Assembly: GCF_030384885.1 (NCBI RefSeq)
Contig: NZ_CP128613.1
Source of the DNA: Escherichia coli
Lineage (GTDB): Bacteria; Pseudomonadota; Gammaproteobacteria; Enterobacterales; Enterobacteriaceae
DNA length: 64,000 nucleotides
Strand: one strand, 5' to 3'
Shown here piece by piece: positions 1-55,364 of the stretch; position 1 is the stretch's first letter; every line of letters begins with the position of its first letter. The position numbers were made by a program, and so were the translations under genes. The notes under the pieces were generated by a model. The model saw nothing but the letters and a program-made list of their open reading frames with translations. It was not told the DNA's origin and did no database searches.

Positions 1-1261
1 CGAACTGGCTGCATACATGCCGGTTTCCGGTTCGTTTGCCACTTACGGTCAGAACTATGTTGAAGAAGGCTTTGGCTTTGCGCTGGGCTGGAACTACTGG
101 TACAACTGGGCTGTGACTATTGCCGTTGACCTGGTTGCTGCGCAGCTGGTTATGAGCTGGTGGTTCCCGGATACACCCGGTTGGATCTGGAGTGCGCTGT
201 TCCTCGGCGTTATCTTCCTGCTGAACTACATTTCGGTCCGTGGCTTTGGTGAAGCAGAATACTGGTTCTCACTGATCAAGGTTACGACGGTTATTGTCTT
301 TATTGTTGTCGGCGTGCTGATGATTATCGGTATCTTCAAAGGCGCACAGCCTGCGGGCTGGAGCAACTGGACAATCGGCGAAGCACCGTTTGCTGGTGGT
401 TTTGCGGCAATGATCGGCGTGGCAATGATTGTCGGCTTCTCTTTCCAGGGTACCGAGCTGATCGGTATTGCTGCAGGCGAGTCCGAAGATCCGGCGAAAA
501 ACATTCCACGCGCGGTACGTCAGGTGTTCTGGCGAATCCTGTTGTTCTATGTGTTCGCGATCCTGATCATCAGCCTGATTATTCCGTACACCGATCCGAG
601 CCTGCTGCGTAATGATGTGAAAGACATTAGCGTTAGCCCGTTCACCCTGGTATTCCAACACGCGGGTCTGCTCTCTGCGGCGGCGGTGATGAACGCTGTT
701 ATTCTGACGGCGGTGCTGTCAGCGGGTAACTCCGGTATGTATGCGTCTACTCGTATGTTGTACACCCTGGCGTGTGACGGTAAAGCGCCGCGCATTTTCG
801 CTAAATTGTCGCGTGGTGGCGTGCCGCGTAACGCGCTGTATGCGACGACGGTGATTGCCGGTCTGTGCTTCCTGACCTCGATGTTTGGTAACCAGACGGT
901 ATACCTGTGGTTGCTGAACACCTCTGGTATGACAGGCTTTATTGCCTGGCTGGGGATTGCGATTAGCCACTACCGCTTCCGTCGCGGTTACGTATTGCAG
1001 GGACACGACATTAACGATCTGCCGTACCGTTCAGGCTTCTTCCCACTGGGGCCGATCTTCGCATTCATTCTGTGTCTGATTATTACTTTGGGCCAGAACT
1101 ACGAAGCGTTCCTGAAAGACACCATTGACTGGGGCGGCGTAGCGGCAACATATATTGGTATCCCGCTGTTCCTGATTATCTGGTTCGGATACAAGCTGAT
1201 TAAAGGAACTCACTTCGTACGCTACAGCGAAATGAAGTTCCCGCAGAACGATAAGAAATAA
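1..1261 (+). CDS. lysP: Lysine-specific permease, C-terminal ~420 aa; 5' end lies upstream of the window
   Basis: Reading frame is open from the window start (frame of pos 2) into ORF 17..1261; multi-TM amino acid permease sequence matching my recollection of LysP; conserved position upstream of cirA. Confidence 0.85.
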   Translation, partial: ELAAYMPVSGSFATYGQNYVEEGFGFALGWNYWYNWAVTIAVDLVAAQLVMSWWFPDTPGWIWSALFLGVIFLLNYISVRGFGEAEYWFSLIKVTTVIVFIVVGVLMIIGIFKGAQPAGWSNWTIGEAPFAGGFAAMIGVAMIVGFSFQGTELIGIAAGESEDPAKNIPRAVRQVFWRILLFYVFAILIISLIIPYTDPSLLRNDVKDISVSPFTLVFQHAGLLSAAAVMNAVILTAVLSAGNSGMYASTRMLYTLACDGKAPRIFAKLSRGGVPRNALYATTVIAGLCFLTSMFGNQTVYLWLLNTSGMTGFIAWLGIAISHYRFRRGYVLQGHDINDLPYRSGFFPLGPIFAFILCLIITLGQNYEAFLKDTIDWGGVAATYIGIPLFLIIWFGYKLIKGTHFVRYSEMKFPQNDKK

Positions 1262-1553: not shown

Positions 1554-3533
1554 ATGTTTAGGTTGAACCCCTTCGTACGGGTCGGGCTGTGTTTGTCCGC
1601 TATTTCTTGTGCATGGCCTGTGTTAGCGGTCGATGATGATGGCGAAACGATGGTTGTCACCGCATCTTCCGTTGAGCAAAACCTTAAAGATGCACCCGCC
1701 AGTATCAGCGTCATTACCCAGGAAGACCTGCAGCGAAAACCGGTACAGAATCTGAAGGATGTCCTCAAAGAAGTGCCTGGCGTACAACTGACGAACGAAG
1801 GGGATAACCGTAAGGGCGTTAGTATTCGTGGTCTGGACAGCAGCTACACCCTGATTCTCGTCGACGGTAAACGCGTTAACTCCCGCAATGCCGTCTTCCG
1901 CCACAATGATTTCGATCTGAACTGGATCCCGGTCGATTCCATCGAACGTATTGAAGTGGTCCGTGGCCCGATGTCGTCGCTGTACGGTTCCGATGCGCTC
2001 GGCGGTGTCGTCAACATCATCACCAAGAAGATCGGTCAGAAATGGGCAGGCACAGTAACTGTTGACACCACCATTCAGGAACATCGCGATCGCGGTGATA
2101 CCTATAACGGTCAGTTCTTTACCAGCGGACCATTAATTGACGGCGTGCTGGGAATGAAAGCTTACGGCAGCCTGGCAAAACGTGAAAAGGATGACCCACA
2201 AAACTCAACGACCACCGATACCGGAGAAACGCCGCGTATTGAAGGATTCTCCAGCCGCGACGGCAATGTGGAATTTGCCTGGACACCGAATCAAAATCAC
2301 GATTTTACTGCCGGATACGGTTTTGACCGTCAGGATCGTGATTCCGACTCGCTGGACAAAAACCGCCTGGAACGTCAGAACTACTCCGTCAGCCATAATG
2401 GGCGTTGGGATTACGGCACCAGCGAACTGAAATACTACGGTGAGAAAGTCGAAAACAAAAACCCTGGCAACAGCAGCCCGATAACTTCCGAAAGCAATAC
2501 GGTCGACGGCAAATACACGTTGCCGTTGACGGCGATTAATCAGTTTCTCACGGTTGGCGGTGAATGGCGTCACGACAAACTTAGCGATGCGGTGAACCTG
2601 ACCGGGGGAAGCAGCTCCAAAACGTCTGCCAGCCAGTACGCGCTGTTTGTGGAAGATGAATGGCGGATCTTCGAGCCGCTGGCGCTGACGACCGGCGTAC
2701 GTATGGACGATCATGAAACCTACGGTGAACACTGGAGTCCTCGTGCCTACCTGGTTTATAACGCCACCGACACCGTAACGGTGAAAGGGGGCTGGGCGAC
2801 GGCATTTAAAGCGCCTTCTCTGTTGCAACTTAGCCCTGACTGGACGAGCAATTCCTGCCGTGGCGCATGCAAGATTGTGGGTAGCCCGGATCTGAAACCT
2901 GAAACCAGCGAAAGTTGGGAGCTGGGGCTTTACTACATGGGTGAAGACGGCTGGCTGGAAGGGGTGGAGTCCAGCGTGACCGTTTTCCGTAACGATGTGA
3001 AAGATCGCATCAGCATCAGCCGTACGTCTGACGTCAATGCTGCACCGGGCTACCAAAACTTTGTCGGTTTTACAGCGGACGGTGTGCCAGTATTCAGCTA
3101 CTACAACGTTAACAAAGCACGTATTCAGGGCGTGGAAACCGAACTGAAAATTCCGTTCAACGATGAATGGAAACTGTCGATCAACTACACCTACAACGAT
3201 GGTCGTGATGTCAGCAACGGCGAAAACAAACCGTTGTCCGATCTGCCGTTCCATACCGCTAACGGTACGCTGGACTGGAAACCGCTGGCGCTGGAAGACT
3301 GGTCATTCTATGTTTCTGGTCACTATACCGGGCAGAAACGCGCCGACAGCGCGACGGCTAAAACTCCGGGCGGTTATACCATCTGGAATACCGGCGCGGC
3401 CTGGCAGGTGACCAAAGACGTCAAACTGCGTGCGGGTGTGCTGAACCTTGGCGACAAGGATCTCAGTCGTGACGACTACAGCTATAACGAAGACGGACGT
3501 CGTTACTTTATGGCAGTGGATTATCGCTTCTGA
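1554..3533 (+). CDS. cirA: TonB-dependent catecholate siderophore / colicin I receptor
   Basis: 659-aa ORF; N-terminal signal peptide, TonB box region (ETMVVTA) and C-terminal ...AVDYRF beta-barrel terminus; matches recalled CirA sequence. Confidence 0.95.
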
Positions 3534-3540
3534 TGCGAAG

Positions 3541-3567
3541 ATGCCCGGCGTCGATCCCGCCGGGCAT
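3541..3567. terminator. Hairpin between convergent cirA and transporter gene (probable bidirectional terminator)
   Basis: Inverted repeat atgcccggcg-tcgatc-cgccgggcat between two convergent stop codons. Confidence 0.5.
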
Positions 3568-3591
3568 AATTCCAGAAATTCGCTTCTGGCT

Positions 3592-4914
3592 TTATAACCG
3601 ATGAAATTTTGCCAGTAAGGCCAGTGAAAATGTTGTCAGCAAAATGGTAATGACTGCGTAAATATACACTCCTGACCATTCCCAACTGTTTTTCACCATA
3701 ATAACTGGAAGCCCTGCCATTGCCGCGCCTAAATAACTAAACAAGCCCCTGAATCCAGTAATGGAACCTGCCGCATCTTTATGCGTAACATCAAGACACC
3801 CGACAGCGAATAACATATGCGGTCCATACAATGCAAACCCCATGATTGTAAACAGAATAGCCGTTAATGTGTAGGAGACGTCCTGCACCAGCGGTACGAG
3901 AACGATGCAAATACATAAAGCGATGGCAAAGATTAATCCGGTCATCCAGCGGTTACTTTTAAACATGAAATCGGACAAGTACCCCGCCAGTAATCCCCCA
4001 GCAAGTCCACCTGCTTCAAACCAGGATATAATGGAGTTCGCTTTAATCAGGCTCCAGTTATGAACCTGAGAATAATAAATTTGTGGCCAGTCATTGAGGA
4101 TGGTGCGTGCAATATAGACCGACATATCCCCGAGGATAATGAGCCAAACTAATGGGTTGGTAAGAATATATTTAACGAATATTTGCCAAAAACTGAGATC
4201 AACCGGACTTGCTTTAACTTGTGCAAGTTCTGTCGGGTCGTTGCGCCACTTACCGACGTTAGGCAAACCGAGCGTGCCGGGACGATCTTTTATCGTAAAC
4301 AAGGCAACAATCCCCATAATCAGTGAGATTACACCCGGAACATAAAAGCCCATCTTCCAGCTGCCACTAAAAGCAATAGCAAAGCTTGTCAGGAGAGGCG
4401 CAAGACTACCGCCAATATTATGCGCAGCTTCAACAACTGCCCACCAGCGTCCGCGTTCATTTTTCGAGAACCACGAGGCCATAATTTTTGCCATTGGCGG
4501 AAAACTGGTACCCTGGAGAATAGCATTAAGGCTATACAGGATATAGAACGCAGCAACGCTGTCTGAAAAACCGAAAAGAATGTTAACAATACCGACGCCA
4601 ATAAGTACGGGGCCAGTCATCGCTCGTGGGTTAATTTTATCGACTAACATGCCACCTACAAACTTCATGGAGCCATAAAGAATGTAAAAGACCGACGACA
4701 TGATAGCGAAATCTTGTGCGGTTAATGACGTATCCGTTAACATCGCTGGCATGGCCGCAGAGAAATTCTTGCGGGTTAAGTAAAATACGGCATAAGAGAT
4801 AAATACAGAGGTGATGATTTCAATGCGAAATTTTTTATAAGTATGATCAACTTCTTCTTTTGGTTTGACCACCGGTTGGTCGGCCTGGCTGAAAATAAAT
4901 TTTTTCAAACTCAT
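3592..4914 (-). CDS. MFS transporter of the organophosphate:Pi antiporter family (UhpT/GlpT/PgtP-like)
   Basis: 440-aa 12-TM protein; segments such as WQIFVKYILTNPLVWL align to recalled UhpT (WQIFVEYVLKNKVIWL); AT-rich, part of inserted island. Confidence 0.75.
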   Translation of the reverse strand: MSLKKFIFSQADQPVVKPKEEVDHTYKKFRIEIITSVFISYAVFYLTRKNFSAAMPAMLTDTSLTAQDFAIMSSVFYILYGSMKFVGGMLVDKINPRAMTGPVLIGVGIVNILFGFSDSVAAFYILYSLNAILQGTSFPPMAKIMASWFSKNERGRWWAVVEAAHNIGGSLAPLLTSFAIAFSGSWKMGFYVPGVISLIMGIVALFTIKDRPGTLGLPNVGKWRNDPTELAQVKASPVDLSFWQIFVKYILTNPLVWLIILGDMSVYIARTILNDWPQIYYSQVHNWSLIKANSIISWFEAGGLAGGLLAGYLSDFMFKSNRWMTGLIFAIALCICIVLVPLVQDVSYTLTAILFTIMGFALYGPHMLFAVGCLDVTHKDAAGSITGFRGLFSYLGAAMAGLPVIMVKNSWEWSGVYIYAVITILLTTFSLALLAKFHRL

Positions 4915-52982: not shown

Positions 52983-54071
52983 TCACGGCAGGCGGTGGCG
53001 AGCTTGATAATAAGCCTGCCAGTGAGCTTCTTTATGTGTAGCGACACGCTGTTCGAAGTAACGGCGCAGACGTGCGCGATCTTCTTCGTTATCTTTGACG
53101 ATGGTTCCGGCAATACAGTCTACCAGGTCGGCAGGCTCCCCAGCGCGATTCGCTAAAAACCAGGCGCGGAAACCCACGGCGTGTGCTACGTTAACGGCTT
53201 CAGCGGTGGACATAATCGCTGTAAGGGTATCCATTGAGGTTTTCTTTTCGCCGTTGGCACGCAGATCGCGGAAGGTGCGGACCAGTAACTCCAGTACCGC
53301 GTCAGGCACTTTATGCGGAATACCGCTATGGGCCAGCAAACGTGCCGAAGCGCTGGCGACAAGCTCCAGCTCCTGGGCGAAATCCATAATCGGAAAGACA
53401 GTTTCAAAATCGAAGCGACGCTTGAGTGCGGCACTCATTTCATTGACGCCGCGATCGCGGGTATTGGCAGTAGCAATAATATTAAAGCCTTCCCGCGCAT
53501 AGAGCTGACTGGCTTCACCAGTGAGTTCCGGCACCGTCATAACCCTGTCAGAAAGCATACCTAACAGACAGTCTTGTACTTCCAGTGGTGTACGCGTTAT
53601 CTCTTCAAAACGGACAATTTTGCCGTCGCGCATTCCCTGGTAGAGCGGGGCAGGGACCAGCGCTTCCGTTGACGGACCATGGTTGATAAGCAGGGCGTAG
53701 TTCCAGCCGTACTTGATTTGATCTTCGGTGGTAGATGCGCCGCCCTGGATGGTTAACCCGGCATCGCCGCTAATAGCGGTTGCCAGTAATTCAGACAGGA
53801 GCGATTTTGCGGTGCCAGGTTCCCCCACCAACATCAAACCGCGCCCGGTAGCGAGAGTGACTAACATGCGTTCGACAGCGGAGGGGCTAATCACGACTTT
53901 ACGGCTAATATTTTGTGCTTCGTCGCCAAGGATAAAAACACGGGCCGCAGGCAAACTTAACTGCCAACCGGGCGGGCAAGGTGCGTGATCATTTTGTTTT
54001 AATTTTGCCAGTTCATCGGCGTATAACACAGCGGCAGGCGGACGCTGCAGATGATTATTCTGCGGTGACAT
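52983..54071 (-). CDS. yehL: MoxR-like AAA+ ATPase
   Basis: Walker A LVGEPGTAKS, Walker B/sensor motifs; start at MSPQNNHL. Confidence 0.85.
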   Translation of the reverse strand: MSPQNNHLQRPPAAVLYADELAKLKQNDHAPCPPGWQLSLPAARVFILGDEAQNISRKVVISPSAVERMLVTLATGRGLMLVGEPGTAKSLLSELLATAISGDAGLTIQGGASTTEDQIKYGWNYALLINHGPSTEALVPAPLYQGMRDGKIVRFEEITRTPLEVQDCLLGMLSDRVMTVPELTGEASQLYAREGFNIIATANTRDRGVNEMSAALKRRFDFETVFPIMDFAQELELVASASARLLAHSGIPHKVPDAVLELLVRTFRDLRANGEKKTSMDTLTAIMSTAEAVNVAHAVGFRAWFLANRAGEPADLVDCIAGTIVKDNEEDRARLRRYFEQRVATHKEAHWQAYYQARHRLP

Positions 54072-54181
54072 ATATTCATCCCTGAAATGTATTAATGAAA
54101 TAAACGATATTTTACGCGCAATAAATGTTTGGCGCATTAGTTGTTTGAGCGGAAAATATCTGGAAAGCAGATCACAGTAAA

Positions 54182-54265
54182 TAAAAAAACCTGCTGGTGA
54201 GGCAGGTTCTTTTATTTACTACTTTCAGGCCTAACACCACGGCCTGTGCAACATCGTGTTCCAAC
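54182..54265 (-). ncRNA. orzO: Antisense antitoxin sRNA (OrzO-like) of type I TA locus
   Basis: Minus-strand promoter TTGCAA-17 nt-TATAAT (-10 at 54272-54277), 5' region complementary to toxin leader (54246-54265 vs 54412-54431, 19/20), hairpin acctgc..gcaggt + U7 terminator at 54182-54207. Confidence 0.7.
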
Positions 54266-54294
54266 GAACGAATTATAACCATCGGTGGACCCCG

Positions 54295-54322
54295 TTGCAA
54301 TTAAGATAATGAGATTTATAAT
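54295..54322 (+). promoter_or_regulatory. Promoter of toxin mRNA (TTGCAA-16 nt-TATAAT), giving ~175-nt 5' leader
   Basis: -35 ttgcaa 54295-54300 (palindromic, shared with divergent sRNA promoter), -10 tataat 54317-54322. Confidence 0.65.
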
Positions 54323-54502
54323 CCTGACTGTTGGGACGTTGCGCCGGATCGAACCCATTTCAAGTCCTGGCTACCGGACGGGTGGTGCCGCAGGTAGTGC
54401 CCTGATCCGGAGTGCAACATCGTGGTCCAACATACGTAAACCAGTATCGACAGGCAGTGTAAGGGTAAGATGCTGGTGTTGCGCTCCTTAATAAGGAGAG
54501 CG

Positions 54503-54592
54503 GATGGACACGCTGACACAAAAGTTAACCGTGCTCATTGCCGTACTGGAGTTATTAGTGGCTCTGTTACGGCTGATTGATTTGTTGAAGTA
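54503..54592 (+). CDS. zorO: Type I toxin, 29-aa hydrophobic peptide (ZorO-like)
   Basis: ORF MDTLTQKLTVLIAVLELLVALLRLIDLLK preceded by strong SD taaggagag; matches my recollection of ZorO from E. coli O157:H7; not in ORF track (too short). Confidence 0.7.
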
Positions 54593-54615
54593 ACGGGCAA
54601 ATTGAAACGCATCTA

Positions 54616-54645
54616 AGGGGGAAAATACCGCTTCCCCCTTTAATA
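54616..54645 (+). terminator. Rho-independent terminator of toxin mRNA
   Basis: agggggaa-aataccgc-ttccccct followed by ttaataaaat. Confidence 0.6.
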
Positions 54646-54792
54646 AAATGATTATTGCTTCCATTAATTCACCCGATAACTTTTTTCTTATTTATTAATT
54701 CATCGATTTTATAATTAACGTACATTTGACCGGGATGTGAGTATTTATGGTGGCTATTGGCGAAAAATATCTGGAAACCAGATCGCGGAAAA

Positions 54793-54874
54793 TAAAAAAA
54801 CCTGCTGGTGAGGCAGGTTCTTTTATTTACTACTTTGACGATAACTTGCTGATTGTGCAACATTTCGTACCAAC
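54793..54874 (-). ncRNA. Second Orz-like sRNA (orphan: no cognate toxin ORF downstream)
   Basis: Intact minus-strand promoter TTGCAA(54904-54909)-17-TATAAT(54881-54886), terminator hairpin 54800-54818 + U-run; seed gtgcaacatttcgtaccaac differs from unit 1. Confidence 0.6.
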
Positions 54875-54986
54875 GAGTAAATTATAACCATATCCACACT
54901 CCATTGCAATTCAGTGAGTGAGATTTATAATCCTGCCCCTTGGGAGGTTGTGCCGGATCGGACCAATTTGAATTATTTAGAGTATA

Positions 54987-55304
54987 TTATTCTATTTCTT
55001 GGTTGAATATGTTCTGTAGTTCACGATTAAAAATGGCTATTACCGTTTCTGGTGATTCACCTCGTAATTTTCGCTCATCAATAAATTCATCTCTTATATA
55101 AATCAACGCATCATTTATTAGCGGGTCGGCATCTTCTCCATCACGTTGATGAAATGTTGGACGTAGCCGGAATCGTTCCTGTCGATAGACGGAACCTGTA
55201 AATAATTCAGAGCATTTATGGATCTCAAGTCTGAAGGAAAACGGATCTTCAGGTACAGGGACTTCATAATCATAAGTAGCGACCAGCTCTTTTTGCACGA
55301 TCAT
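54987..55304 (-). CDS. yehK: Uncharacterized small protein
   Basis: 105 aa in conserved position between yehL and yehI. Confidence 0.75.
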   Translation of the reverse strand: MIVQKELVATYDYEVPVPEDPFSFRLEIHKCSELFTGSVYRQERFRLRPTFHQRDGEDADPLINDALIYIRDEFIDERKLRGESPETVIAIFNRELQNIFNQEIE

Positions 55305-55364
55305 CGCTTTTCCCGGTGGTAAGTCGTGTTGATAACGGGCAGTCGCATCACTGCCCGCTGTGTT

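Follow-up and report, generated by a model that had tools for sequence, protein, structure and literature searches.

[quoted passage not shown] Fozo et al. (2010) described the locus in the strain EDL933, where it lies between yehI and yehL and comprises a tandem pair of 29-aa genes (Z3289 and Z3290) and two divergent sRNAs of ~85 nt each, the latter detected by Northern blotting; start sites at the locus were mapped by primer extension, and the proteins of Z3289 and Z3290 were both toxic at high level (PMC2887945). The zorO mRNA carries a 174-nt UTR with the ribosome-binding site (RBS) at +164 to +169 and the EAP region at +73 to +102, at the 3' end of which the antitoxin OrzO pairs (PMC5397157). 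GGAGTG is conserved in the EAP region (PMC11264685). Wen et al. (2014) assigned the specificity of the sRNAs to V1, nucleotides +9 to +11, which read GAA in OrzO and ACG in OrzP, and zorO was not repressible by OrzP (PMC3919570). The sRNA has to pair through its 5' end with the toxin leader, ~60 nt upstream of the RBS, over 15 or more continuous nt, or over 17 or more discontinuous nt with one mismatch (PMC11264685, PMC3919570). A "1.5-copy" class was recorded by Shore et al. (2024) in 6 of 2,212 assemblies.

We analysed a stretch of 64,000 nucleotides of E. coli DNA, hereafter the window, in which an initial annotation made from the sequence alone had proposed a complete zor-orz-type module between yehL and yehK. 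Every feature described there was found where it had been placed, and the assignment to zor-orz is borne out by an Rfam OrzO-P match, a ZorO-identical peptide, leader landmarks and the location, which is the published zor-orz site (PMC2887945). The RefSeq annotation of near-identical genomes agrees, placing yehL at 52983-54071 (-) and yehK at 54987-55304 (-). A megablast search of 5,426 complete genomes of E. coli likewise put the region between these genes, with the strain 2013C-4282 as the best match (99.9%); this strain and 2020CK-00188 are 99.8-99.9% identical to the window here. We regard it as almost certain that the region is a chromosomal zor-orz type I toxin-antitoxin locus in the 1.5-copy state. 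The intact module, spanning 54183-54641, represents the zorP-orzP paralogue, and the adjoining unit is an orphan orzO. Sequence identity, family membership, pairing, landmarks, location and the deletion described below are the basis of this explanation in the present analysis, while toxicity, sRNA expression and the repression mechanism are taken from the literature on identical or near-identical sequences. The features are collected in Table 1.

Table 1. Features of the zor-orz locus in the window, in order of position.
Feature	Position	Strand	Details or basis
orzP-type antitoxin sRNA gene, 83 nt	54183-54265	-	Rfam RF02083; 5' end GUUGGAACACGAUGUUGCAC
orz promoter	-35 TTGCAA 54300-54295, 17-nt spacer, -10 TATAAT 54277-54272	-	10/12 consensus
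zor promoter	-35 TTGCAA 54295-54300, 16-nt spacer, -10 TATAAT 54317-54322	+	10/12 consensus
zor 5' UTR, 174 nt	54330-54503	+	start inferred from -10 position and published landmarks
Antitoxin pairing site	54412-54431	+	19/20 complementarity; identical in O157 zorP leader
Shine-Dalgarno (SD) AAGGAG	54493-54498	+	5 nt before ATG; within inverted repeat GCGCTCCTT / AAGGAGAGC
29-aa toxin ORF (zorP position, ZorO protein sequence)	54504-54593 including stop	+	MDTLTQKLTVLIAVLELLVALLRLIDLLK; ORF listing
zor mRNA terminator-like hairpin GGGGGAA / TTCCCCC, then TTT	54615-54641	+	sequence; kept in both O157 copies
Orphan orzO-type sRNA gene, 81 nt	54794-54874	-	5' end GUUGGUACGAAAUGUUGCAC; V1 = GAA
Second divergent promoter pair	-35 TTGCAA 54904-54909 shared; orzO -10 54886-54881 (-); remnant zorO -10 54926-54931 (+)		consensus scan
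zorO leader stub, ~31 nt	54939-54969	+	pairwise BLAST against O157, alignments

The toxin peptide matched exactly the "Small toxic protein ZorO" (ZORO_ECO57) in a public protein collection (UniProt), of which the T3S variant is ZorP (ZORP_ECO57). This ZorO is that of E. coli O157:H7. A search of NCBIfam with the 29-aa peptide returned no family, a result that is uninformative as no curated model exists. The proposed hydrophobic ORF, its strong SD and its distance of ~175 nt from a promoter were likewise recovered, the leader measuring 174 nt if the start is placed at the inferred 54330. Numbered from this inferred start, the RBS occupies +164..+169 and the site of antitoxin pairing +83..+102, so that the landmarks coincide with the published zorO numbering (PMC5397157). 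Positions +73..+102 (54402-54431) are the counterpart of the published EAP/standby region, and its conserved GGAGTG is present at 54409-54414, preceding the pairing site. Thermodynamic folding of the full-length zor mRNA predicted an unpaired probability of 0.06 for the SD. The hairpin downstream of the ORF was missed by our consensus scan because its T run is short.

On the minus strand, the orzP-type sRNA was detected as an OrzO-P match (RF02083) at 54183-54258 with 98.9 bits (E = 1.9e-16; gathering score 60). The predicted RNA starts at 54265, seven bases past the -10, and ends at 54183 after a 12-bp hairpin and U7; its 83 nt agree with the ~85-nt hairpin-terminated transcript that had been anticipated, and its fold has an energy of -27.5 kcal/mol (z = -2.7). 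The sub-threshold Rfam matches, namely ohsC (28.5 bits), STnc370 (30.4 bits), Thr/Trp leaders (20-25 bits) and OrzO-P itself on the plus strand (25.2 bits), were rejected as due to chance or to the terminator, as they lie on the terminator hairpin and far below the gathering scores.

The divergent promoter TTGCAA-17-TATAAT of the initial annotation was located at 54300-54272. The consensus scan found four promoter-like sites against 3.4 expected from shuffles, and these four are exactly two divergent pairs, one per repeat copy; the count of terminators was likewise without significance by itself. Because the number of promoters is not above the shuffled expectation, the scan alone proves nothing, and the promoter assignment rests on identity with the published hexamers, which are conserved in >99% of loci (PMC11264685, Table 3). 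The hexamer TTGCAA is a palindrome, and at 54295-54300, and again at 54904-54909, a single stretch of 6 bp provides the -35 for the toxin promoter (+) as well as for the antitoxin promoter (-), so that two polymerases could compete for one site. We found no discussion of this shared hexamer in the zor-orz papers cited here (PMC2887945, PMC3919570, PMC5397157, PMC11264685).

The first 20 nt of the sRNA can pair with 54412-54431 at all positions but one (19/20); this site lies inside the toxin leader, as had been noted, and ends 61 nt upstream of the SD. A lone A/G mismatch at sRNA position +7 gives a 6(1)13 pattern, which passes the published minimum of 17 nt for discontinuous pairing (PMC11264685). 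The duplex has a predicted energy of -34.4 kcal/mol, compared with -20.0 +/- 2.4 for 500 dinucleotide-preserving shuffles (z -6.1); none of the 500 reached this value, the best being -29.6 kcal/mol. The position of a mismatch, here +7, can matter, since a single mismatch at +9 of OrzO abolished repression (PMC3919570). By analogy with OrzO, we infer that OrzP represses zorP; no direct test of OrzP on zorP was found in the four papers cited above.

The intact module likely follows the mechanism worked out experimentally for zorO-orzO. A sigma-70 promoter would give rise to an mRNA in which a structured leader of 174 nt precedes the coding sequence of a 29-aa hydrophobic inner-membrane toxin, and a divergent promoter with the common palindromic -35 would produce the ~83-nt sRNA. 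Because the SD would be locked in a stem, the full-length zor mRNA is expected to be poorly translated; 5' processing would open +73..+102 as a single-stranded region, aiding ribosome loading. Pairing of the sRNA 5' end with +83..+102 would block translation and lead to RNase III-dependent mRNA decay. If the antitoxin drops, the toxin would be made, the membrane depolarised or damaged, and growth arrested. We know of no LexA/SOS control of zor-orz. Folding of the full-length and delta-28 leaders reproduced the RBS sequestration, and the published opening of the EAP region only weakly, the unpaired probability of +73..+102 rising from 0.30 to 0.39 after the removal of 28 nt; as this opening is only modest, the processing model is not reproduced by thermodynamic prediction alone. 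In published experiments, overproduction of the identical toxin caused growth arrest, and OrzO rescued cells from zorO in a partly RNase III-dependent manner (PMC3919570, PMC5397157).

It could be argued that the neighbouring deletion betrays a locus in the course of being lost, and that the module is by now a decaying and silent remnant whose surviving pair is no longer expressed or toxic, given that one toxin of the two is gone and that about a third of E. coli genomes lack any toxin copy (see also PMC11264685). We consider this highly unlikely, as both promoters (10/12 each), the SD, the 29-codon wild-type ORF, the pairing site and the terminators are intact and agree with the consensus, and the module shares 96% identity with the functional O157 copy with no indels.

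Next to be weighed is which paralogue has survived. The initial annotation had recognised the architecture of ZorO-OrzO; it was right about the family but not about the paralogue, which is zorP-orzP by its V1 and its BLAST score. V1 of the sRNA (54265-54183) was found to be ACG by alignment and pattern scan, and the GUUGGAACACGAUGUUGCAC end is therefore of the OrzP type; the first 20 nt of this sRNA and its leader target are identical to those of O157 orzP/zorP. From orz to the stop codon, the module scored 674 bits (96.35% identity, no gaps) against O157 zorP/orzP, compared with 514 bits (88.1%) against zorO/orzO. The published category cut-off is >650 bits to the EDL933 pair (PMC11264685), and our reference was a different O157 strain, AR-0428. 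With AR-0428 as the reference, the intact module shows both hallmarks of zorP-orzP (V1 ACG and >650 bits) and neither of those of zorO-orzO (V1 GAA and >650 bits), GAA occurring only in the orphan sRNA at 54794-54874. In the O157 genome (L001), the yehL-proximal unit combines an ACG sRNA with MDSLTQ... (ZorP) and the yehK-proximal unit a GAA sRNA with MDTLTQ... (ZorO), and pairwise BLAST showed the intact unit to be colinear with the yehL-proximal O157 copy 1. An assignment of the intact pair to zorO-orzO itself is thus extremely unlikely in spite of its peptide, which has the T3 of ZorO and not the S3 of EDL933 ZorP. At 72.5% of zor ORFs overall, the ZorO sequence is the commonest zor product (PMC11264685), and it is encoded by two single-copy P-type loci (L004 and L005) as well, so that a P module with a ZorO protein is unremarkable. 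The intact module is, in short, zorP-orzP by RNA and position, with a protein of ZorO sequence. The third published type, zorQ/orzQ, was judged improbable, the peptide being without its A20S change and the zorP/orzP cut-off being passed. Finally, we dismiss an intergenic chance coincidence of ORF, hairpin and complementarity: although promoter-like sites, taken by number only, do not exceed the shuffled expectation, the Rfam E value of 1.9e-16, a peptide exactly that of a characterised toxin, a duplex energy beyond all 500 shuffles and conservation in 3,397 genomes stand against it.

Beyond the span of the initial annotation, which ends at 54650, the locus continues with the orphan orzO and a zorO stub (54794-54970). 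The former gave a second OrzO-P match (RF02083) at 54794-54867 (-) with 90.6 bits (gathering 60), is 96.3% identical to O157 orzO over 81 nt and has a fold z of -3.3. V1 in GUUGGUACGAAAUGUUGCAC is GAA, and the sRNA is therefore of the OrzO type. Relative to O157 (L001 ~3374-3693), the window carries a deletion of ~320 bp with its junction at ~54969/54970 and TTTAA microhomology. This removed the ORF and terminator of zorO together with its leader from around +32 onwards; in the second unit, orzO is still intact and has its promoter, and of zorO there remain the promoter and a stub of ~31 nt. Just past each orz terminator (54155-54177 and 54766-54788) we also noticed a short and imperfect inverted repeat, ATCTGGAAA(G/C)CAGAT, which is part of a ~215-bp repeat unit and of which the minus strand of copy 2 was flagged as terminator-like.

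Whether OrzO acts on the surviving toxin can be judged from its predicted pairing with the zorP leader, which is 15/20 and interrupted (5+2+9), with an energy of -24.4 kcal/mol compared with -34.4 for OrzP. Given this pairing, OrzO is an orphan by the published specificity rules. In the mirror case, OrzP on zorO, 15 nt of pairing fail experimentally (PMC3919570), and cross-regulation of the surviving toxin by OrzO is therefore unlikely. The orphan OrzO, with promoter, 5' end and terminator intact, may be retained for some role apart from toxin repression. The remnant zorO promoter (+) aims into the 3' end of yehK, and the next terminator-like site on the plus strand lies at 55336-55357. With the zorO terminator lost, this promoter could yield an RNA antisense to the full length of yehK, and it may be driving such a transcript now; the same geometry of remnant promoter and yehK is also present in K-12.

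The initial annotation had taken the system to be absent from K-12. This holds for the toxins, which are missing, but not for the antitoxin: K-12 (L003, DHB4, 2071-2290) has an OrzO-P match of 99.9 bits with V1 = ACG, and the orphan orzP it keeps has been published as OrzPmg and detected by Northern blotting (PMC11264685). Since this orphan is kept and expressed, zor-orz is not simply absent from K-12. A pattern scan found the junction 20-mer CCAATTTGAATTATTTAGAG to be common to the window, K-12 and two other genomes. The K-12 stub has a P-like promoter and early leader, followed by O-like sequence over the ~17 nt that adjoin the junction. This P/O mosaic and the identical junction suggest a two-step origin, in which zorO would have been deleted first by the 320-bp microhomology deletion, resulting in the state seen in the window, and an unequal crossover between the P and O repeats would then have removed zorP and orzO, leaving orzP only. 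We put this scenario forward tentatively, the evidence for the order being just two diagnostic positions and the shared junction, and it is equally tentative that the orzP-only state of K-12 and of about a third of E. coli arose in this way. The present-day 1.5-copy strains could instead be secondary recombinants.

Among the 5,426 complete E. coli genomes, the toxin-specific segment 54380-54600 was found in 3,397 (5,228 places) and orz-containing segments in ~5,240. At least one toxin was present in ~63% of the genomes and about a third were antitoxin-only, shares near the published 67% and 30% (PMC11264685). A junction-spanning search recovered the 1.5-copy arrangement in a single piece in at least ~5 of the 5,426 genomes (best 60 matches), those among the matches listed being 2013C-4282, 2020CK-00188, HCP5S3_I2, LCP30S3_I5 and AST215; the arrangement is rare, yet already a recorded category. 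No zorO, zorP or orz features were found in the PGAP annotation of the yehL-yehK interval in NZ_CP044145.1 (L001), NZ_CP027579.1 and NZ_CP014270.1 (L003). The O157 record flags yehM as a pseudogene with an internal stop.

The discovery value of the locus is small, zor-orz having been studied experimentally since 2010 and being present in most E. coli. Because neither the toxin nor the sRNAs appear in the RefSeq/PGAP annotation of the genomes inspected, a reader of the raw sequence can legitimately "rediscover" the system. A name based only on the peptide misassigns the paralogue; it is the RNA pairing region that holds the specificity. The uncommon 1.5-copy arrangement offers a natural system in which to ask if orphan type I antitoxins do anything in their own right; such a strain would also be useful to reconstruct the rise of the K-12 orphan.

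Compared with known systems, the intact module is closest to EDL933 zorP-orzP (Z3290 / sRNA-2). Both adjoin yehL, and the 411-nt unit is 96.35% identical without gaps; the promoters, the SD and the ORF length of O157 zorP-orzP are as in the window, and so are the sRNA 5' 20 nt (V1 = ACG) and the leader target. There are 15 substitutions in all, one of them in codon 3, which is ACG (Thr) in the window and TCG (Ser) in EDL933 zorP, and for this reason the protein in the window is ZorO and not EDL933 ZorP. EDL933 zorO-orzO (Z3289 / sRNA-1), the experimentally dissected pair, encodes the identical 29-aa protein and has the same 174-nt leader, RBS at +164..169, pairing at +83..102 and a divergent sRNA of ~81-83 nt. 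Nevertheless, it is only 88% identical to the module in the window and has V1 GAA instead of ACG; its antitoxin gene orzO is present in the window at 54794-54874, whereas the zorO toxin gene is deleted. The resemblance to ohsC is sub-threshold (28.5 bits in Rfam) and terminator-driven. A further comparison system with a divergent sRNA resembles zor-orz in that the RBS is sequestered and the sRNA pairs by its 5' end at a site far upstream of it, and in its long processed leader with standby-site logic (PMC5397157), although its toxin is unrelated in sequence to the zor toxins. The OrzPmg locus of MG1655 (PMC11264685) keeps, like the second unit in the window, an orz gene with its promoter, a zor promoter and a ~30-nt stub, and its deletion junction by yehK is identical. 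The two differ in the orphan, which is orzP in K-12 and orzO in the window, and in the toxin, of which K-12 has none left, the window still having a full zorP-orzP pair.
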